Positions 3,114 to 53,905 of a stretch of DNA of 64,000 nt are shown piece after piece. The DNA lies in the sequence record MW250785; one strand, 5' to 3'. A program made the position numbers and the translations under genes. How positions within the stretch are numbered: position 1 is the stretch's first letter; every line of letters starts with the position of its first letter. Below the pieces are notes generated by a model. That model worked only from the letters and a program-made list of their open reading frames with translations, was not told the origin of the DNA and ran no database searches. This DNA comes from Escherichia phage UPEC03.

Positions 3114-5105
3114 ATGGCTTTACAATCTCCAGGTATTGAAACCAAAGAAACATCGGTACAATCTACCGTTGTTCGAAATTCAACTGGTCGCGCTGCCATT
3201 GTCGGTAAATTTTCATGGGGGCCAGCTTATCAGATCCGTCAGATTTCTAACGAAGTCGAAATGGTAAACTATTTTGGTTCCCCAGACAACTTGACCGCTG
3301 ACTATTTCATGAGTGCTGTTAACTTCTTGCAGTACGGTAATGATCTCCGTGTGGTTCGCGTTGTCGATAAAGATGCCGCTAAAAACGCAAGCGCAATTTT
3401 CAACCAGATCAAAACAACTATCGCATCACAGGGTTCTAACTACACTGTAAACGATGTGATTAAAGTAAAATACAACAGCGTTGTTGTAGAAGAAAACGGC
3501 AAAGTGTCCAAAGTTGACAGTAACGGCAAGATCCTCTCGGTAATCATTCCAAGCGAAAAAATCGTTGCCCGTGCTAAACAGATTGGTACTTACCCAGATA
3601 TTTCTACTGGCTGGACTACCGAAATTGTTTCTCAGTCTTCCGGTGTTTCTGCGTCGATTACGATTGACGGCATCGAAAGCAATTCTGGGATCACTCTGTT
3701 GAACCTGGATATTGCAAAAGAAACAATTCAGGGAACCGCTTTCCAGACTCTTACCCAGAAATATCAGTTGCCGTCTGTTGTGGCTCTGTATCCTGGTGAA
3801 CTGGGTTCAACTGTTCAGGTGGAGATTATCTCCAAAGCTGCTTACGATTCTGGCGCTATGATTTCCGGCTACCCTTCTGGGGTTTCCGTTAAGAACAGCG
3901 GTCGTTCTGTAATGACCTACGGGCCACAGACCGATAACCAGTACGCTTTTGTTGTGCGTCGTGGTGGTATTGTACAGGAATCCTTCATCGTGTCAACTGA
4001 GAAGACCGATAAAGATATCTACGGCGTAAACATCTTCATGGATGACTTTTTCGCTAACGGTGGCTCTCAGTACGTTTACGGTACTTCCCTGAACTGGCCT
4101 AAAGGCTTCTCCGGTATCCTTGAGTTCGGCGGTGGTTTGTCCTCAAACGACACTGTAGGCGCTGATGAACTGATGACTGGTTGGGATATGTTCGCTGATC
4201 GTGAAGCGCTGCATGTACCTCTGCTGATTGCTGGTGCGTGTGCTGGTGAAACCGTAGAGATTATGTCTACCGTTCAGAAACATGTTATTTCAATCGGTGA
4301 TGAACGTCAGGATTGTACCGTGTTTGTGTCGCCTCCGCGCTCACTTCTGGTGAATATCCCGCTGGCAACTGCGGTTGATAACATGATTGAATGGCGTACT
4401 GGCTATAAACTCAGTGGTGGTGCTGCTGTTGATAACAATCTGAACGTAAGTTCAAGCTATGGCTTCCTGGATGGTAACTATAAATATCAGTATGATAAAT
4501 ACAATGACGTGAACCGTTGGGTTCCGCTGGCAGGTGATATCGCTGGCCTGTGTGTTTACACTGATAGCGTTTCTCAACCGTGGATGTCTCCAGCAGGTTA
4601 CAACCGTGGTCAGATCCGCAACTGTATCAAACTGGCTATCGAACCGCGCACAGCACATCGTGACGCAATGTATCAGGTTCAGATTAACCCGGTAACTGGT
4701 TTCGCGGGTGGTTCCGGCTTCGTTCTGTTCGGTGATAAAACACTGACTAACGTACCGAGTCCATTTGACCGTATCAACGTTCGTCGCTTGTTCAACATGA
4801 TCAAGAAAGACATCGGTGATAACGCGAAATACAAACTGTTTGAAAACAACGACGATTTCACCCGTTCTTCGTTCCGTATGGATACAGGTCAGTACATGAC
4901 TAATATTCGTGCGCTGGGTGGTTGCTACGATTACCGTGTAATCTGTGACACCACGAACAACACGCCGGACGTAATCGACCGTAACGAGTTTGTAGCAACG
5001 GTCTACGTGAAACCGCCTCGTTCTATCAACTACATCACTCTGAACTTCGTAGCAACGTCTACAGGCGCAGATTTCGATGAACTGGTAGGGCCGCAAGCCG
5101 TATAA
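3114..5105 (+). CDS. 18: Tail sheath protein gp18
   Basis: 663 aa; N-terminus SPGIE.KET.VQSTVV and overall size match T4 gp18; RBS GAGG upstream. Confidence 0.95.
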   Translation: MALQSPGIETKETSVQSTVVRNSTGRAAIVGKFSWGPAYQIRQISNEVEMVNYFGSPDNLTADYFMSAVNFLQYGNDLRVVRVVDKDAAKNASAIFNQIKTTIASQGSNYTVNDVIKVKYNSVVVEENGKVSKVDSNGKILSVIIPSEKIVARAKQIGTYPDISTGWTTEIVSQSSGVSASITIDGIESNSGITLLNLDIAKETIQGTAFQTLTQKYQLPSVVALYPGELGSTVQVEIISKAAYDSGAMISGYPSGVSVKNSGRSVMTYGPQTDNQYAFVVRRGGIVQESFIVSTEKTDKDIYGVNIFMDDFFANGGSQYVYGTSLNWPKGFSGILEFGGGLSSNDTVGADELMTGWDMFADREALHVPLLIAGACAGETVEIMSTVQKHVISIGDERQDCTVFVSPPRSLLVNIPLATAVDNMIEWRTGYKLSGGAAVDNNLNVSSSYGFLDGNYKYQYDKYNDVNRWVPLAGDIAGLCVYTDSVSQPWMSPAGYNRGQIRNCIKLAIEPRTAHRDAMYQVQINPVTGFAGGSGFVLFGDKTLTNVPSPFDRINVRRLFNMIKKDIGDNAKYKLFENNDDFTRSSFRMDTGQYMTNIRALGGCYDYRVICDTTNNTPDVIDRNEFVATVYVKPPRSINYITLNFVATSTGADFDELVGPQAV

Positions 5106-37913: not shown

Positions 37914-39337
37914 TCTTTCATACGATTGAATGTGTTCCGTCAAGTGGTAAAACAAAGGCGATTCTGAACCATATCAATCAAACGGGCGAAAAAGCAATCA
38001 TCGCTTCGATTTCCATGATGTTATCAAAACAGTCTTATGACTACTACATCAACCAGGTAAAAGGGAAACGAGCGGTGATTGTGGACACGGATCACCGAAC
38101 CAAAAGAACCAATAATGATGCGCTGCGTGAGGTTGTCAAAGATTATGATGTGATCTTTATCACTCATGCAGCACTCAAAAACATTGATGACTTTGATTTG
38201 TATAAGGATTTTTCTCTGTACATTGACGAAGTTCCTGATTTGGTTGCGTTCGAAAGTCTGCGATTTAATAGCAATATCAAGCACATACGCGAGATTTGCT
38301 TGCCGTTTAGTTGCAATGCCGATGATATCGTTGATTTAAAACTTGACGAAGAAAAACGAGAACTGGTTACACGATTAGCCTATGATGGGCTTCGTAAACG
38401 TGATGATATCGCAATGAAGATGTTCCCGCTTTACCGTGCTCTGTTAGGGGCTATTCCGGTGAAGATGCAATGTAGCGATTCGGGATATGTCTGTTACTTC
38501 GTAGAGGATCATGACGTAAGCCAGTGGAAGTTCAAAAATGTAACCATTGCTTCATCCAACATCAAAGATACGATTACAGGGAAGATCCTACAAACGTTTC
38601 ATGATGTGGAGTTCAAAGATTCACCGCTTCAAACGCTGGTTGACTTTAAGCAATATAAAAACACGAAGCGCATTAAAATACATGTGCTCGCAGAGGGGGA
38701 TTATTCGCGTTATACGGGTGATCTCTCTCAATCTGGGACGACAGTATACACCCAGATTAAAAAACGCGTGGAGGCGCTTTTAGGGGGCGAACAGTTCATC
38801 TATTGCACCAACACGTATCGATCGAAGTTTAGCGAGGGGCAGGAAATCCCGTATAACTCGCACGGATTGAACTTCTATTCGAGCTATACTAACGTGGTAG
38901 CATTATTCAGTTACAACCCGTTACCCTGGCTTCGTCAAATGTTGCGAGCGGTTGCGGTGTCCTCTGGACTCGAAGAGGAAGAATTAGTTGATGCTTATGT
39001 TGTCAGTAAATATTACGAACCAGCCTTTCAGTTATGCGCTCGTTCTGATATCCGACACAACAACAGCAAAAGAAAGATTAATTTATTTGTGCCTGATATG
39101 CGGTTAGCGAAATACATGAAGGAAAAATATTTTCCCGATGCCATTATCGAAACCACAGAAGCAGTTCAAACGAAAAGGCAACGCAAATCATTTCAAACCC
39201 TTTTCCAAATGACGGACAAAGAGAAAAACGCTTTTACGCCATACAAGAAAAGAAACAAATTAGATTATGCGAATCCTCTTCATCACGCGATTGTTAAAGA
39301 TTGGCTGAACAATTACCGTGAGAAAAAGGCGACTTGA
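37910..39337 (+). CDS. P-loop NTPase-like protein (Walker A PSSGKT, Walker B LYIDEV), function unknown
   Basis: 475 aa; N-terminal VPSSGKTKAIL and ~100 aa later FSLYIDEVPD; immediately upstream of gene 34. Confidence 0.5.
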   Translation: MIFHTIECVPSSGKTKAILNHINQTGEKAIIASISMMLSKQSYDYYINQVKGKRAVIVDTDHRTKRTNNDALREVVKDYDVIFITHAALKNIDDFDLYKDFSLYIDEVPDLVAFESLRFNSNIKHIREICLPFSCNADDIVDLKLDEEKRELVTRLAYDGLRKRDDIAMKMFPLYRALLGAIPVKMQCSDSGYVCYFVEDHDVSQWKFKNVTIASSNIKDTITGKILQTFHDVEFKDSPLQTLVDFKQYKNTKRIKIHVLAEGDYSRYTGDLSQSGTTVYTQIKKRVEALLGGEQFIYCTNTYRSKFSEGQEIPYNSHGLNFYSSYTNVVALFSYNPLPWLRQMLRAVAVSSGLEEEELVDAYVVSKYYEPAFQLCARSDIRHNNSKRKINLFVPDMRLAKYMKEKYFPDAIIETTEAVQTKRQRKSFQTLFQMTDKEKNAFTPYKKRNKLDYANPLHHAIVKDWLNNYREKKAT

Positions 39338-39352
39338 TGGTCGCCTTTTTTG
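39327..39352 (+). terminator. Intrinsic terminator before gene 34 late promoter
   Basis: aggcgac…gtcgcct hairpin + TTTTTT. Confidence 0.75.
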
Positions 39353-39354
39353 TT

Positions 39355-39362
39355 TATAAATA
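39355..39362 (+). promoter_or_regulatory. T4-type late promoter TATAAATA (gene 34)
   Basis: Exact TATAAATA after terminator, ~32 nt upstream of gene 34. Confidence 0.65.
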
Positions 39363-39393
39363 TCAGTATTGAATAAGATAAAGGAAAACGATA

Positions 39394-42300
39394 ATGGTAG
39401 CTAAATCATTCCGCGCCACAAGTGGCCTTGATGCTGCTGGCGAAAAAGTTATCAACGTTGGTAAAGCATCACGCTCTGTGTTGAGCGACGGCGTGAACGT
39501 TGACTTTTTTAACGAATTTAACACGATCCAACAATACGATTCTACCCGTGGTTATGCTGCGTTTATGGCTATCATGTACGCGCGTCGTATTTGGTACGCT
39601 CGCGCAGATATTCCATCACCAGCGGGTGCTTTCGATGAAACAAAATGGATCTCAACCCGTAACGATCCAAAATGGGTATATAACAACGTAACGAGCAATG
39701 ACGGTCTCCCTGTTGAATCCGGTACGTACTTAATGGCTGACGGTCGTTTCTCTGAATTGACCTATATTCTGCCAGATGCCCCTGTTGAGGGTGATATTAT
39801 CACTATTAAAGATGGTGGCGGTCTTGCAGGGATCAACAACCTGTTAGTGCGTTCAAACACTCGTCAGATCCGTTTACGTGATATTCAGTCAAGCTCTTAT
39901 CGACTGACTCACCCATATATGACCGTTGCGTTTATTTTTAACGGCAACTTATGGCGTGTTGCTGAAATGCGTGATAACCGTGATTCGCAGTTTGTTAATG
40001 CGACTGGTTTAACCGCTTTCCAAATGCAAGCGGGTATGGTAACATTCCGTAACAGTGGAACGGGTAAAATTACGTTGCAGTTGCCTCGCTACGCAAACGA
40101 TGGTGACTCAATCACAACTTACGATCTGGATCGCCTTGCTTCGGTGAACGTTGCGACTCTGCAAGTTTATCCTGGTAGCGGACACACGATCAGTTATGAC
40201 GGTATCAATAACGTACCCTCTGTGACTTCACAGCGTTCCGGTTATGGTATTTTCATGTTCGATCAGGCTAATAACCGTTGGGTTGTTTATGACGGTGATC
40301 AGCGCGTTCGTCTGCGTCGTATCAGTGATGACCTGAACATGTTGCCGAACGATTACGTGTTCATTACTCCTGTTGCTGGTAGTCCTCCAACTGTGCGTAA
40401 CGTTACGCTGACTCTTCCGCAAGATGTTGCCGAAGGTGATCGCGTGTATATCAGTATGTACATGATGGGGAAAACGCAGAACTGCACGATCAAAGTTAAA
40501 GATGGTTCCGGTGAAAAGATCCGCACCAACAAAAACATGATGCAGTTCCCACAGCGTAAGGATTATCCGCCTAATGATTGGTTCAGTGTTGACACTCTGA
40601 CTTTCAATGCCGATACTGACTATCTTCCATACATGGAATTGTCGTATCTGAAAGCTACGAAAGAATGGGTAGTTGCACAGTATCGCCCGATCATTGAACG
40701 TGTCGATCCAACAAACCGTTCTCGTCTGGGTGTGATTGCGCTGGCTACACAGGCAGAAGTAAACAAGAACCATGAAGATACGCCGTCTGATGAACTGGCA
40801 GTAACCCCGCGTACACTGGCGAATAAAACCGCTACTGAAACGCGTCGTGGTATCGCTCGCCTGGCAACAACTGCGGAAGTTAACCAGAACACGACAGCAA
40901 CCTTCCTTGATGACGTGATCGTGACGCCTAAAAAGCTGAACGAACGATCAGCAACAGAAGATCGTCGTGGGGTGCTGGAAATCGCAACTCAGGCAGAAAC
41001 AAACGCTGGTACTGATGACACTACCGCAATCACGCCTAAGAAGCTCGACACACGCCGCGCGACCGAAACCCTAGCAGGTATCGGAAAACTCGTTACAACG
41101 GGCGCTACGACAGCGGAGGGGGCTTTACGTGGGGATGCTGGTACTAACGTCTACAACTTCAATAACGGTGTTGATCTGATCACTCCGAAATCATTGAACG
41201 AGAAGACGGCGACCGAAAAGTCAAAAGGTCTGGTTGTTCTGGCGACTGAAAACGAAGTGGTAACTGGTGCTGCTGCGGGATCTGCTTCAATGCCGATCGT
41301 AGTAACTCCTGAAATGCTGCATCGTAAAACGTCTACTGAAACGCGTATCGGATTGATTGAGATCGCAACCCAGACAGAAACAAACACGGGAACTGACGAT
41401 CTCCGTGCTGTAACGCCTAAGAAGCTGAACGATCGTAAAGCGACTGAATCACTTGATGGTATTATTGCCCTCGCTACCACTGCGGAAGTTGCAGCAGGTA
41501 CGGTAACGAATAAGGCGGTTGTTCCGGTTAAGCTGAAAGAGTTCTTCGACGTTACAAGTCATGTTGCGGTTGCTACCGATGACGGTTTAACTCAGTCCGG
41601 CACTATCTGGACAACGATTAACCTGGGGATTGCGTCTGCTACTGAAACACAGCGCGGTACTTTACGTGTTGCGACTCAGGGTGAAACTGATGCGGGTCTT
41701 CTGGATACCGTGTTCATTACGCCTAAGAAACTGCAAGCGAAGAAAGCGACGGATACCGCCGAAGGTATTATTCGTTGTGCGACTAACGCGGAAGCGGGTG
41801 CGGGTACTGCTACTAACCTGGCAATTACTCCGGCTACCATGCAGTTCTTGAACGGTACTGATCCGGCGTGGGGTGCGACGACAACTCGACGCGGTGCGGT
41901 GTTTATCACTACCCAATCAAACACTTTCATCGGTGATAATCTGGTTGGTTCTACTCAGGCCGTTGACGATTATCTCGAAGATTTCTATGCTGTATCGCCT
42001 CGCGGTCTGAACTTTGCTCTGCAAAACTTCTTACCGAAAATGGCAACGGCACAGAATAGTTTGAGTCTGGGCGGTGTGGTTGCTGCAAGCTGGATGCGTC
42101 GTGATGCAAACCAGACGGTAACTGGAAATAACACGTTTAACGGTACAAGCAACTTCGTTGGTAACGTAACCACTAACGGAACACTGACGGCTAACGCTGC
42201 GGTAACGGTTAACAACACCGTAACCACGAACAATAACATTAACCAGTCTGCGAAAGCAAACACTGTTTATGCAAATACTGTTCTGAGTGGTGAGGCTGCG

Positions 42301-49329: not shown

Positions 49330-50142
49330 ATGGCTGTTGTAGGCGTACCTGGTTGGATCGGGTCTTCTGCTGTAAGCGAAACGGGTCAAAGATGGATGTC
49401 CGCTGCTGCGGGACAACTTCGATTATCTGCTGCGGGTTATATGTCACGATTTGCGGGGATCTCCCGTGAACAATCAATAACAATTTCCGCGAGTAACGCA
49501 TACGCATGGTCAACCCTGGTCAACCAGATTAAATCATTGGGTGTATCCGGTGGTGCATTCAAAATTACTGTTGTCGGGAACATCGTTTCAAACAGTGCTG
49601 GCGCTCCGTGCCTTAACTTCACATCCGATCTTGCTGGTGTCGATTATATCGAACTGATCATTAACTCCGGTGTAGGTGTTATGGGTCGTGGTGGTGCGGG
49701 TGGTGGTGATAACACAGGTGGCCCGTATTCGTCCGGTGAAAATGGTGGTGTCGGTATTACTAACGCGATCGGAAACAAACTGCGAATAACGAACAATGGT
49801 TATATTGCGGGTGGTGGTGGTGGTGGTGGCCTGGTAAACATGCCAACTTCTACATCACGACGTGTACAGGTATCCGGTGGTGGTGGTCGACCTTTCGGTG
49901 CTGCTGGTACAGGTGGTTATGACGGTAACGGTACAGCGGCAACAATTTCCGCTCCTGGTTCCGGTGGTTCTTCGAGTCTATCACAAGCTGGTGCGGGTGG
50001 TAACTTAGGTGCGGCTGGTCAATATCCACCTAAAGCCGATGGTCGTCTGGAAGCTCAAGCGGCGGGTGCTGCGGGTGCTGCGGTTAACGGTAACGCGCCA
50101 ACGTGGAGAACTGTAGGGACAATTTACGGTTCGAGAGTTTAA
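49330..50142 (+). CDS. 38: Tail fibre adhesin gp38 (T2-type, glycine-rich motifs)
   Basis: MAVVGVPGWIGSSAVSETGQRWMS N-terminus, poly-Gly islands (GGGGGGG, GGGGRPFGAAG), C-terminal WRTVGTIYGSRV as recalled for T2/T6 gp38. Confidence 0.85.
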   Translation: MAVVGVPGWIGSSAVSETGQRWMSAAAGQLRLSAAGYMSRFAGISREQSITISASNAYAWSTLVNQIKSLGVSGGAFKITVVGNIVSNSAGAPCLNFTSDLAGVDYIELIINSGVGVMGRGGAGGGDNTGGPYSSGENGGVGITNAIGNKLRITNNGYIAGGGGGGGLVNMPTSTSRRVQVSGGGGRPFGAAGTGGYDGNGTAATISAPGSGGSSSLSQAGAGGNLGAAGQYPPKADGRLEAQAAGAAGAAVNGNAPTWRTVGTIYGSRV

Positions 50143-50195: not shown

Positions 50196-50840
50196 ATGGC
50201 GCTATTACAAGATAAATTGGCGGTGCTTGAACGGGTAATATCGTTCATCATGGCGGTCAAAACATGGAAACAGTTATTCATTAAATTGGTTCTTATCGTC
50301 ACTATTTTCATTATGTTCGTAACATGGTACAAGTGGGATGACTTATTTTCAGTCTGGAAAACATCTTCAATCGTTATAGACGTGCCGACGATGGAGATTG
50401 AAAAGGCAAAAAAGTTTGAATCCGCATCCATCGAACAGTTAAACATAGTGCATTTAACTACGGATGCGGATTTTTCGGCAATCTTTGGTTTCAGACCTAA
50501 GAATGTCAATTATTTTGTTGATATAATTGCGTATGAAGGGAAGTTACCGCAACAGATTAACCCGAAAAATCTGGGTGGCTATCCTATAGACAAGACATCG
50601 GAAGAGTATAATAGACATATAAACGGGCTGTACTATATCTCAGATATTGCAAGCCCGTATCTTCCAACAAAAGACCTTGTTCCGGTAGCATATACCTTTA
50701 GTTGTCCTTATTTCAATCTCGAAAACTACTATTCTGGATCGATTCTAATGGAATGGTATATACAGAAGCCCGAAGTCACCGATACGAAGTTGATGATCGT
50801 GTGCAATCAGGCCGCTAGAATTTTAGGCAGGGTTCGATGA
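50196..50840 (+). CDS. t: Holin T
   Basis: 214 aa; N-terminal TM segment; FRPKNVNYFVDIIAYEGKLP, CPYFNLENYYSGSILMEWY, CNQAARILGR match T4 holin t. Confidence 0.93.
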   Translation: MALLQDKLAVLERVISFIMAVKTWKQLFIKLVLIVTIFIMFVTWYKWDDLFSVWKTSSIVIDVPTMEIEKAKKFESASIEQLNIVHLTTDADFSAIFGFRPKNVNYFVDIIAYEGKLPQQINPKNLGGYPIDKTSEEYNRHINGLYYISDIASPYLPTKDLVPVAYTFSCPYFNLENYYSGSILMEWYIQKPEVTDTKLMIVCNQAARILGRVR

Positions 50841-51098
50841 TAATTTCAGTTTCAAACCGCTTAAAGCCCGATCGATGAAATCTTTTACTTTCGTCATCGG
50901 GCTTTTGTCGTATATGTCCCATACGCGCATGAGTTCGTAAGGTGTCGGAACATATTCATCGTTCCAGTATCCAACATTACCTATCGTAACGCGTCGGAAA
51001 CCAGCCTCTACGCTGTGATATACAAAGAACCCAGCCTTACCCACAGGGGAGACTTTAAAACCGCGTGTAGCGGCTTTCATGGCTTCGTCGTGTGTCAT
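50823..51098 (-). CDS. Small protein, candidate DUF2829/Tad2-like
   Basis: 91 aa; N-terminal MTHDEAMKAATRGFKV… and …MRVWDIYD resemble the (F/M)xEAL..LK.GKKV … DWEIV pattern recalled for DUF2829. Confidence 0.3.
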   Translation of the reverse strand: MTHDEAMKAATRGFKVSPVGKAGFFVYHSVEAGFRRVTIGNVGYWNDEYVPTPYELMRVWDIYDKSPMTKVKDFIDRALSGLKLKLSSNPA

Positions 51099-51397
51099 GA
51101 TAGAATCACTTCGCCTCTGTATTGATTGTGATAGATGTATGGACGAACACCCAGTGGGTGATTATCTATGACTAAGATCAGGTCAAGTTCGTCGTGGTTA
51201 TCATCTTCTGCAACTATATCCCAGTCGGTCGCTTTCTGTTCTTCAACACTGGCAATGAATACCTGGTTAATCTCAACCTTACGGTGAGAACGGCGAATGA
51301 TCGTATCCCCTTCGCGGAACACGATCATATCTGGGTTAATCGGGCGGTACGCGGTTTTACCCGCGCACACTTCATTAAGCATTTCTTCGTATGTCAT
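51095..51397 (-). CDS. Small protein, candidate DUF2829/Tad2-like (paralog)
   Basis: 100 aa; MTYEEMLNEVCAGKTAYRP… and …ATDWDIVAED fit the same pattern. Confidence 0.3.
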   Translation of the reverse strand: MTYEEMLNEVCAGKTAYRPINPDMIVFREGDTIIRRSHRKVEINQVFIASVEEQKATDWDIVAEDDNHDELDLILVIDNHPLGVRPYIYHNQYRGEVILS

Positions 51398-52194
51398 TAT
51401 AATACCTTTACTCGCTGAACGATTGTTTGTTTAACTTCTTTGTATTCGTTGTGAAGTTTAGGTGTCGCTTTGAAGCGAATCACATCACCCTCTTCAACAA
51501 TTTTGTTTCCGTAGTAGATAACCACGTTACCATCTACGTTGATTTTGGTCATGAAACGTTCCACTTCGGTGTAATAAGAAACTTGGGTATATCCGAGAGA
51601 AATCACTTTCTCAACAACCCCGCTCATTTCCATACGCTTACCGATTTCCCCGATGTGCTGTGCTGCTGCGATCTTCGCCTGGCGCTCTGCTTCCCATTCT
51701 GCGCGGATCTCTTCACGTTTAGCGATGTAATCCTTCTCCAGCGCTACGCCCATGCAGTAAGAGCAAATAGCCTGAAATACTGGGCTATCGTTGCCGTTTT
51801 CTTTGCACTGATCAGCCCACCACAGAATCGTATACATCGGCATATCAGCAATCACTTCACCTTTACGCTTACCGATTGGCATGATGCCCTGTTCCAGCAG
51901 TTCCAGGTTTTCGGTATCCTGTACAGACAGTTTGCCGCGACGTTCAAACAGATCGAAATCTGCGAATCCCTGGAACACCATCTGGAAAGTGTCGGTCTGG
52001 TTCAGACGATCCACCATGCGATCGAAGTATTCACGCGCTTTCGCTTCTGCTTTATCTGGGTCGGTAGACAGGTTGCAGATATAGTTATCAGAAGTGAATC
52101 CACCTCCACGACGCTCTACACGCAGGGTGTACATAGCGTTTTTAGCGCCAGAAGAAATGAAGTATGTCGCGGTAACTTTAGTCAGGTTAGTCAT
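51397..52194 (-). CDS. Hypothetical protein (266 aa)
   Basis: Start at ATG (MTNLTKV) with AAGGAG RBS; first gene of a three-gene - strand unit ending with the two DUF2829-like ORFs. Confidence 0.55.
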   Translation of the reverse strand: MTNLTKVTATYFISSGAKNAMYTLRVERRGGGFTSDNYICNLSTDPDKAEAKAREYFDRMVDRLNQTDTFQMVFQGFADFDLFERRGKLSVQDTENLELLEQGIMPIGKRKGEVIADMPMYTILWWADQCKENGNDSPVFQAICSYCMGVALEKDYIAKREEIRAEWEAERQAKIAAAQHIGEIGKRMEMSGVVEKVISLGYTQVSYYTEVERFMTKINVDGNVVIYYGNKIVEEGDVIRFKATPKLHNEYKEVKQTIVQRVKVL

Positions 52195-52270
52195 GGTGAA
52201 TCTCCTTAGTGGTTTCGTTTCGACAAGGCCAATATAGCAAAAGCCCTCAACCGAAGTCAAGGGCTTTTTA

Positions 52271-52498
52271 TCATGCGTTCGAATCTTTCATAACTTTATG
52301 AAGATGGATATCAAAAATTTTCCAGTATGCTTTTCCGCGAGGATAAATTTTTGCTTTATCAATGTCTTCGTTGCTTCCCCATGTATTGTTTGGGTTACGA
52401 CAACGATTTTTTGCATAATCCATGTGCCAGAATAAGCGCTGCACCGATGAATCTGTGCCTAATGGATCTTCTTTGCTGAACAGAATTTGTGAACTCAT
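52271..52498 (-). CDS. Hypothetical small protein
   Basis: 75 aa ORF followed by hairpin terminator. Confidence 0.45.
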   Translation of the reverse strand: MSSQILFSKEDPLGTDSSVQRLFWHMDYAKNRCRNPNNTWGSNEDIDKAKIYPRGKAYWKIFDIHLHKVMKDSNA

Positions 52499-52911
52499 AA
52501 GAAGAAACCTGTTCGAACTACTAAATCGATCTGTTTTTCCGGTATCAGTGGCGCTTTATCGTCAACGTTGCACTGATAATACATCCCGACATACTCATGA
52601 GGAACGTTGGATTCGCTCGCCCATTTCAGGTTGTCATCTGTACGCGGCCCTAACATGAGGTTAACGATATTGACAGCGTGATCCTGTTCTGGGGTATTGT
52701 TGCATCCGTTCACATAATGTCCGTGAGCGGTTTTGAGGATTTCAATGATATCTTCGTCGGCTTCAACGAGATACAGCCCCGTGTTTTCTGGGATTTCCTC
52801 AAGAATAATCAAAGCGGTTTTCATCACACTTACCTTTATGTTTCTGCTTACGTTTTGCTTCTTTAAGTGCTCGCTTGCGATCGCGGTGAGTAGAAGCGCG
52901 GTTGAAATCAT
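52495..52911 (-). CDS. Hypothetical protein
   Basis: ORF; true start may be the internal Met at 52824. Confidence 0.45.
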   Translation of the reverse strand: MISTALLLTAIASEHLKKQNVSRNIKVSVMKTALIILEEIPENTGLYLVEADEDIIEILKTAHGHYVNGCNNTPEQDHAVNIVNLMLGPRTDDNLKWASESNVPHEYVGMYYQCNVDDKAPLIPEKQIDLVVRTGFFL

Positions 52912-53467: not shown

Positions 53468-53905
53468 TTAGTATGGTTGGAATTCAAAGTCAAACAGATC
53501 ATTTAGTGCGCGGTTGTATTCAGTATAGTTCTCACCATCCCCGAACCGCATCTGAATCGCGCTTTCCGCTATTGTACCAGTAAGATTCGAGAAACCAAAG
53601 AGGTTTTTAATCTTATCGTGTGCAACGAAGTACAGAGAAGCACTATCCAGCAAGGCCACCATCGCTGATGGTTCATGTTCGCGGCGTTTGATGCGTAACA
53701 GAGTACGGTTTGCGCCAGTCTTACGGCGTTGATTTGGGGCTACGTAGAATCGAAATACTACTTTACCCGTTTTATCATCAACTACCAGGTAGAAGCCGTG
53801 TTCTTTCAGGTCAACCCCTTCGAACTTGGTGAAGTCACCGCGCTTCATGTCACCTATCTTAACAGCGTATTTGTGGATGTCAAGCCTTGTCAGAATTCTT
53901 TTCAT
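53468..53905 (-). CDS. Hypothetical protein
   Basis: 145 aa ORF. Confidence 0.5.
   Translation of the reverse strand: MKRILTRLDIHKYAVKIGDMKRGDFTKFEGVDLKEHGFYLVVDDKTGKVVFRFYVAPNQRRKTGANRTLLRIKRREHEPSAMVALLDSASLYFVAHDKIKNLFGFSNLTGTIAESAIQMRFGDGENYTEYNRALNDLFDFEFQPY

Follow-up and report, generated by a model that had tools for sequence, protein, structure and literature searches.

What is encoded by two short, overlapping genes that lie beside the holin gene t of Escherichia phage UPEC03 (sequence record MW250785), behind a longer gene on the same strand? The window, that is, the whole stretch of 64,000 nucleotides of this record that was analysed, carries at this place a minus-strand unit of three genes whose products are 265, 100, and 91 amino acids (aa) long (Table 1). 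In all annotated relatives the three open reading frames (ORFs) are listed as "hypothetical protein", with holin t on one flank and small early genes, ndd, and rIIB on the other. An earlier note on this DNA proposed that the two small proteins resemble DUF2829 and act in the manner of Tad2, as anti-Thoeris sponges that sequester glycocyclic ADP-ribose (gcADPR). The three tandem minus-strand ORFs are present as it described, with its coordinates; only the length of the "266-aa" protein needed correction to 265 aa, the 266 codons including the stop. We conclude that the 100-aa and 91-aa proteins are very probably homologous to Tad2, as remote members of the Tad2-like (DUF2829) superfamily, and that the pair appears to be a previously unannotated, divergent, and minimal variant of it. 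No record, PHROG, or paper in the searched literature ties the two genes to Tad2, and no paper found there links Tad2 or DUF2829 to Pseudotevenvirus, Slopekvirus, or RB43.

The relationship emerges from profile-profile comparison. A canonical Tad2 alignment (A5) of 16 sequences, made up of SPO1 Tad2 (gp34.65) and 15 diverse homologues found by tblastn in phage genomes, was compared by hhalign with alignments of the 100-aa family (A3) and of the 91-aa family together with its homologues in phages KP27, Phynn, and POP12 (A6). The 100-aa family aligned end to end over 66 columns (probability 94.9%, expect value (E) 4.3e-8, score 46.8) and the 91-aa family over 39 columns covering α1-β1-β2 (94.2%, E 1.1e-7, score 43.4), the close homologues of the 91-aa protein alone giving 44% (E 2.3e-4, score 26.2, 33 columns), while the two families merged gave 97.3% (E 1.9e-11, score 59.9, 67 columns). 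The 60-80 column shuffles of each query reached maximum scores of 17.6 for the 100-aa family and 17.7 for the 91-aa family (the latter against a real score of 42.9), reversed alignments scored at most 15.8, and seven real families from the neighborhood (those of four small early ORFs, Ndd, the holin, and the 265-aa protein) scored 6-12.5 with probabilities of at most 0.2%. The resemblance to DUF2829/Tad2 put forward earlier is upheld, then, as a remote homology at the profile-profile level (94-97%, with clean controls), and not at the level of single-sequence searches, which are not significant.

Both proteins appear to keep the N-terminal helix, the core strands, and the C-terminal aromatic-x-(P/A)-(S/T)-x-x-acidic ... 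W-(D/E)-I motif of Tad2. The invariant columns of A5 (R22, G24, W25, N26, G27, W73, S76, D79, and D84) take in the reported ligand contacts of SPO1 Tad2, namely W25, N26, W73, S76, and D79. The last three correspond to F47, S50, and E53 in the 100-aa protein, where they are invariant or nearly so and are accompanied by D58-W59, and in the motif alignment to Y49, T52, and E55 in the 91-aa protein, accompanied by W60; the substitutions are conservative and the closing Trp is kept. In the 91-aa protein the C-terminal stretch YVPTPYE...VWDIY corresponds to WVPSQTD...DWDIV of Tad2. A feature gained is Arg35-Arg36, present in both families where canonical Tad2 has (I/M)-K-T-A, a strand whose I63 and T65 lie on the adenine side of the pocket in SPO1 Tad2. 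The motifs by which the earlier note recognized the two proteins hold in part: the N-terminal blocks MTHDEAMKAATRG and MTYEEMLNEVCAG exist, offset from one another by one residue, and the DWDI element belongs to the 100-aa protein only, its counterpart in the 91-aa protein being VWDIY. The two proteins are probably a pair of paralogues, and their resemblance exceeds chance only by way of their separate matches to Tad2 profiles.

Traces of the same relationship appear in more conventional searches. With the Pfam model PF11195 (Tad2-like/DUF2829; gathering threshold 25 bits), weak matches were found in 15 of 19 close homologues of the 100-aa protein, in the distant family member P0041 (17.8 bits), and in two of three divergent members of the 91-aa family (Phynn_58, 21.7 bits, E 3e-4; POP12_137, 14.4 bits). 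The match of the 100-aa protein of the window, itself below threshold, covers the whole model (positions 1-73 against residues 1-62). SPO1 Tad2 (8sme) was among five matches, not significant, of the 100-aa profile in the PDB, with FIASVEE..ATDWDIV aligned to WVPSQTD..AEDWDIV, and the top two matches of the 91-aa profile among 177,635 PDB sequences were the Tad2 chains 8v3e_E and 9eib_A (ModTad2; E 0.065-0.068). Neither phmmer nor profile searches of the PDB gave a significant match, nothing significant came from Pfam, NCBIfam, or PADLOC searches with single sequences, and the PHROGs matches of the window proteins were to families of unknown function only (PHROG 7751 for the 91-aa protein). When 1.84 billion representatives were searched exhaustively by HMMER with alignment A1 of the 100-aa family, only 11 proteins came back, with no intermediates linking this narrow family to canonical Tad2; a search for related loci with SPO1 Tad2 as the query recovered only SPO1. 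Three other candidates were set aside: a match to the YhaM OB-domain (E 0.003 with A1) as chance, the value being E 1 with the broader A3 profile, a match to IcmE as a repeat artefact, and weak matches to RE_MjaI and type II restriction endonucleases as inconsistent across family members. AlphaFold2 models built on the shallow family alignments were of low confidence (predicted local distance difference test (pLDDT) 53 and 48). Their order of elements in both proteins (helix 3-11, then strands at about 16-19, 24-29, and 32-38) is that of Tad2, whose fold is defined by an N-terminal α-helix, a five-stranded antiparallel sheet, and a short C-terminal helix, and at this confidence does not count as evidence; the weak matches of the models in BFVD include two DUF2829/Tad2-like entries (E 0.5-0.9).

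The 100-aa and 91-aa ORFs are real, constrained genes, since they are conserved in about 177 phage records with low ratios of nonsynonymous to synonymous substitution (dN/dS). By tblastn the 100-aa protein was found in 178 phage records and the 91-aa protein in 177, of nearly identical genera, and at every locus examined the two genes lie side by side in a constant order. The complete trio (about 265-283, 93-101, and 89-96 aa) stands beside the convergent holin gene in Pseudotevenvirus, in Slopekvirus (KP27), in Pantoea phage Phynn, and in Pectobacterium phage POP12. Purifying selection acts on all three genes, with dN/dS values against phage Lw1 of 0.08 for the 265-aa gene and 0.13 for each of the small ones (0.08 for the holin); across the genes and parts of genes analysed the range was 0.04-0.17, with 0.04 for the domain of the 100-aa protein (residues 1-62). 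The 100-aa gene has a synonymous rate (dS) of 1.33 against Lw1, three to four times that of its neighbors in the same genome pair (0.30-0.49), and between these two phages its protein is 95% identical in the domain and 42% in the tail. The elevated dS suggests allele exchange limited to the 100-aa gene. The hypervariability of the tail was noted for the window and for positions 1314-1601 of a further locus (L029). In Cronobacter phage vB_CsaM_leE (5499-5797 of its locus, L001) the 100-aa gene is recovered in two tblastn pieces and only a 60-aa coding sequence (E_278) is annotated.

The trio is predicted to have an early-type promoter and a coupled tricistronic layout. A hairpin precedes it (at about 52225-52268), with a folding free energy of -23.8 kcal/mol and z = -3.5, and none of 200 shuffles folded as well; the terminator noted earlier ahead of the unit is real, and in the GenBank record of KP27 the corresponding site is annotated with a terminator as well as a promoter. 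One hairpin would here be both an intrinsic-terminator-like element for the upstream early genes and the spacer of the sigma70-like promoter of the trio. Translational coupling, likewise noted before, is borne out by the overlaps of starts and stops at both junctions (Table 1).

Based on these data we put forward a reading, to which we give a probability of roughly 0.45, in which the two small genes encode a minimal, divergent Tad2-like pair that is made early and, as an oligomer, sequesters a nucleotide-derived immune signal in a remodelled pocket. Specifically, the three-gene unit would be transcribed early from the sigma70-type promoter with its translation coupled, and the small proteins would assemble into an oligomer like every characterized Tad2. 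In the functional family described by Yirmiya et al., Tad2 is a homotetramer with two inter-protomer pockets, and its N-terminal helix mediates tetramerization. We propose that the oligomer may be mixed, containing both the 100-aa and the 91-aa protein, because the two genes are adjacent, coupled, and co-inherited. The oligomer would capture a small, anionic host immune signal derived from a nucleotide, in a more basic pocket, Arg35-Arg36 being on the strand that lines the pocket of SPO1 Tad2; that the ligand is gcADPR, held in the canonical manner, is improbable. A new ligand is plausible because of the documented versatility of the Tad2 family, whose ligands include gcADPR, histidine-ADP-ribose (His-ADPR), cyclic CMP and cyclic UMP (cCMP/cUMP), N7-cyclic ADP-ribose (N7-cADPR), and cyclic dinucleotides (10.1101/2023.05.01.538930; 10.1101/2023.11.15.567273; 10.1101/2024.01.03.573942; 10.1101/2025.08.24.671296). 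The 265-aa protein would be co-transcribed and probably acts independently. The sponge mechanism by itself we offer tentatively, as something short of an even bet, and a stricter version seems improbable to us, namely an obligate mixed tetramer (e.g., 2+2) with an Arg-Arg-lined pocket that has no GWNG loop and that takes up an immune signal which Tad2 is not yet known to bind in this manner, perhaps an uncharacterized enterobacterial one. If true, such a tetramer would be the first phage sponge of hetero-oligomeric make-up and a means of identifying its signal.

A number of observations weigh against the proposal of a sponge with a remodelled pocket. The GWNG loop, found in 16 of 16 canonical Tad2 sequences, is deleted with its W25 and N26 in both families, leaving the β1-β2 loop two residues shorter (canonical R-x-G-W-N-G; R-P-I-N-P-D in the 100-aa protein and P-V-G-K-A-G in the 91-aa protein). 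The β2-β3 insertion (SPO1 residues 36-59) is also absent from both, a gap of about 25-30 alignment columns, and because of this the Tad2-like domain is here only about 62 aa long. In HgmTad2, SptTad2, and ModTad2 it is an enlarged β2-β3 insertion that forms a second pocket, for cyclic dinucleotides, His-ADPR, or cUMP. At the level of detection, PF11195 gave 15.7 bits (E 0.023) for the 100-aa protein and the Pfam search found no match to it in the 91-aa protein; the hidden Markov model (HMM) check that the earlier note proposed thereby stays short of its threshold for both window proteins. A canonical Tad2 HMM matched nothing among the 692 ORFs of the window. The structural comparison that the note also proposed proved uninformative, Foldseek finding no significant Tad2 match for the low-confidence models in either the PDB or BFVD. 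The confident part of the 91-aa match is limited to the N-terminal 39 columns, and the two small proteins compared directly are not significantly similar (BLASTP E 1.3; family-against-family hhalign P 0.04). Finally, a hypervariable tail such as that of the 100-aa protein is not a trait of known sponges, and the 100-aa gene is broken (frameshifted or truncated) in one relative, vB_CsaM_leE, so that under laboratory conditions phages may be able to do without it.

With both known pocket determinants gone, a role other than that of a sponge is a serious possibility, and among the alternatives the one that survives best, possible though unlikely, is that Tad2-like ancestry and fold have been repurposed for an early protein-binding inhibitor or modulator of a host or phage factor, with the acidic or hydrophobic tail of the 100-aa protein, which evolves fast, as the contact surface. 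An invariant ligand loop and the insertion pocket would have become dispensable in such a protein, and a hypervariable tail beside a nearly frozen domain, with a dS that suggests allele exchange, would fit it as well. The genomic position also speaks for it: the small genes do sit, as had been noted, in an early operon in the slot beside t, and in T4 this slot holds protein-binding anti-host factors such as asiA and arn. There is a possible precedent in AcrIIA7, a DUF2829 protein that, as cited in 10.1101/2023.05.01.538930, is reported to antagonize Cas9 by an unresolved route. Against repurposing, all biochemically characterized members of the Tad2 family are small-molecule sponges, and the retained aromatic/Ser/acidic C-terminal motif and the gained Arg-Arg both fall at pocket positions, which suggests that the pocket is still under selection.

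It is considerably less probable that convergence or chance accounts for the likeness to Tad2, this being a matter of a common small-protein pattern, a helix followed by β-hairpins and a W-D-I ending in otherwise unrelated lineage-specific early proteins. Such a view can appeal to the single-sequence and sequence-profile searches, all non-significant, to the low-confidence models, which bring no structural confirmation, to the statistics of the profiles, which are less reliable for families this shallow (effective number of sequences 2-3), and to a canonical Tad2 profile built from only 16 sequences. It does not readily account for hhalign scores of 43-60 where 200 shuffles gave at most 18 and the seven real control families at most 12.5, nor for matches that are collinear, end to end, and coincident in their domain boundaries. 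Moreover, three resources independent of one another, namely the A5 alignment, the Pfam HMM, and the PDB chains, all point to Tad2, and merging the two families raises the score with no dilution.

The possibility that the pair are conventional anti-Thoeris Tad2 sponges for 1''-3' or 1''-2' gcADPR, duplicated to broaden specificity, we regard as very unlikely. The remote homology to Tad2, the presence of W73 as F/Y, S76 as S/T, and D79 as E, and the early-type promoter are all as it would predict. However, W25 and N26, the residues that in SPO1 Tad2 make the principal van der Waals and phosphate contacts with gcADPR, are deleted, and in HgmTad2, whose loop contacts are W21, N22, and G23, mutation of the equivalent W21 and N22 abolishes binding. 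With about 1% of Tad2 proteins estimated to be without a functional gcADPR site (Li et al.), the pair would also be an outlier, and the window proteins are below the Pfam threshold. It is on this point that the proposal of the earlier note gives way, the GWNG contacts and the insertion of the alternative pocket both being missing from the two families; conventional gcADPR binding appears unlikely because both known pocket determinants are lost.

The first gene of the unit encodes a protein of a different kind. Its central part (residues about 94-129) is a DUF3820/QSregVF_b (ExoX-C-like) domain with an MPxGKxKG motif, flanked by a conserved N-terminal domain and a β-rich C-terminal domain, neither of which belongs to a known family. 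Like DUF3820 (PF12843) and ExoX-like_C (PF20600), the 265-aa family has a central MP(F/I)GK(H/R)KG...P..Y..W motif; unlike in ExoX, the protein of the window carries no attached exonuclease domain. PF12843 gave 20.2 bits for the window protein against a cut-off of 22 and matched 27 of 29 family members (best E 8.8e-7), PF20600 matched the POP12 homologue, relatives are labelled "DUF3820 family" in the sources, and no solved structural relative was found. The family occurs as 108 clusters in unrelated phages, including a Serratia phage of about 68 kb (SMP) and Agrobacterium phage OLIVR5. In three unrelated contexts of its homologues, N4-like and Agrobacterium jumbo phages included, none of 29 ORFs was a Tad2-like or 100-aa/91-aa-like neighbor (all E >0.06). 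Because homologues occur without Tad2-like neighbors, the 265-aa protein is not an obligate partner of the small proteins and probably acts independently. The least likely alternative, that the trio is one module built around this protein (e.g., for DNA metabolism or nuclease control, with the small proteins as subunits or regulators), draws on co-transcription, translational coupling, strict synteny of the trio in four T4-like lineages, and the occurrence of the DUF3820 motif at the C-terminus of exodeoxyribonuclease X, and it runs up against those homologues without small-protein neighbors and against small-protein families far narrower than the 265-aa family (11 versus >100 matches).

Table 1. 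Features of the three-gene unit and its surroundings, in window coordinates; motif-based elements and domain assignments are predictions.
Feature	Position	Strand	Remarks
gp38 adhesin	49330-50142	+	PF05268
Holin t	50196-50840	+	PF11031, 187.7 bits; late gene, convergent with the three-gene unit; marks the boundary of the early unit
91-aa ORF	50823-51098	-	Start shares a 4-nt ATGA overlap with the 100-aa ORF
91-aa protein, more divergent Tad2-like	50823..51098	-	Residues 1-37 confident; two extra predicted C-terminal helices
100-aa ORF	51095-51397	-	ATG overlaps the upstream TAA by 1 nt (TAATG)
100-aa protein, residues 63-100 and stop	51095..51211	-	Acidic linker AEDDNHDELD, then hypervariable tail (alignments A1, A3)
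100-aa protein, minimal Tad2-like domain, residues 1-62	51212..51397	-	Without GWNG loop, without β2-β3 insertion
265-aa ORF	51397-52194	-	ATG at 52194 behind AGGAG; 266 codons with stop
265-aa protein, first gene of the unit	51397..52194	-	PHROG 3628, E 2e-122
Hairpin	52225-52268	-	13-bp stem, UUCG loop, U-rich tail; predicted to end the upstream early genes
sigma70-like promoter	52260..52231	-	TTGACT-18-TATATT with extended TG; overlaps the hairpin; predicted to serve the three-gene unit
Ndd	53468-53905	-	Four small ORFs between Ndd and the 265-aa ORF

The unit is bordered on one side by the early ndd/rIIB cluster and on the other by gp38 and t, late genes that converge with it; rIIB and rIIA stand farther along the minus strand beyond Ndd. 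The window belongs to Pseudotevenvirus (RB43/Cronobacter leB group), and this region of 1.9 kb is 97-99% identical to Pseudotevenvirus phages (RB43/leB group) of Enterobacter, Cronobacter, and Klebsiella, the closest match being Enterobacter phage Nando (99.3%). At their 3' ends the 91-aa gene and holin t overlap over 18 nt (50823-50840, both strands), where convergent early and late transcripts would be antisense to each other. The invariant C-terminus KLKLSSNPA of the 91-aa family is probably due to this overlap, dual coding with holin t acting as the constraint. Beyond t, the gp38 gene of the window encodes a 270-aa T2-type adhesin (PF05268, 166.6 bits, plus Gp38_N) whose allele is found at ≥91% nucleotide identity in only five Enterobacter phages; gp38 is about 172 aa in the closest genomes overall (Nando, leE, and Lw1), and the difference looks like the swap of a host-range cassette. 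On the early side, the longest ORF at 52495-52911 (minus strand) is 138 aa with an ATG at 52911, a candidate start only, and at this position relatives have two annotated genes, one of 330 bp (109 aa) and, overlapping it, a separate one of 44 aa.

The pair matters because among phage immune-signal sponges no family is as widespread as Tad2, in which each new clade has so far given a new ligand, and because its two genes, annotated everywhere as hypothetical, are present in about 177 sequenced T4-like phages of Klebsiella, Enterobacter, Cronobacter, Citrobacter, and Escherichia, many of them candidates for phage therapy. Should the proteins prove to be sponges, a pocket of new, possibly hetero-oligomeric, architecture could come to light, and perhaps a new signal with it; otherwise they are an instance of the Tad2 scaffold put to another use. 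Either outcome would refine the prediction of anti-defense genes from DUF2829 matches.

Among known systems the reference point is SPO1 Tad2 (gp34.65; PF11195; PDB 8SME, 8WJE), which like the proteins described here is a small (about 90 aa) early phage protein. The likeness extends collinearly from the N-terminal helix (M-x-F/Y-x-E-A/M-L...G) through the core strands to the C-terminal W/F/Y-V/I-P/A-S/T-x-x-D/E ... (D)W-D/E-I-V motif that ends the domain. The differences are that the small proteins here have neither GWNG nor the insertion and have R-R in place of the K-T-A strand, and that the domain is followed in the 100-aa protein by an acidic linker with a hypervariable tail and in the 91-aa protein by two predicted C-terminal helices. 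The closest parallel in genomic position is in the T4-like vibriophages of the KVP40 group (phi-pp2, pp2_294; D486, VPHD486_0351), also members of the Straboviridae, where the Tad2 gene lies at the early/late boundary: the early genes end, immediately past asiA, with a bona fide Tad2 (PF11195, 90.6 bits), which abuts convergent tail-fibre genes. By this analogy the window pair occupies an equivalent boundary position, whereas the vibriophages have a single gene that follows asiA and has GWNG and the long insertion, and the window has two divergent copies that follow a DUF3820-motif gene. The records of phi-pp2 (locus 3437-4041) and Vibrio phage D486 annotate their Tad2 homologue only as hypothetical. 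T4 TadIV-1 (vs.3) was rejected as a relative, being of an unrelated family at another locus.

Paired DUF2829 genes are known from Bacillus phage phi4J1 (XO28_0062/0063; 39288-39793), where they are adjacent with overlapping stop and start; in that phage both copies are annotated as DUF2829 and the translation of XO28_0063 keeps GWNG. In several phages canonical DUF2829 is the C-terminal part of a longer protein (N4 gp49 and three further loci, L006, L015, and L009), and Tad2-like domains hence also occur fused; the fusions of N4 gp49, phiAH14a, and BS-TP2 share a conserved N-terminal region, Y-(I/E)-S-W-S-P-K..F(E/D)..Y. Lastly, HgmTad2/AcrIIA7, SptTad2, and ModTad2 belong to the same superfamily and demonstrate how one scaffold can be adapted to a variety of ligands; the best PDB matches of the 91-aa profile are ModTad2 and a sister chain. 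In these three proteins the extra specificity comes from the enlarged β2-β3 insertion, of which the window proteins have none.

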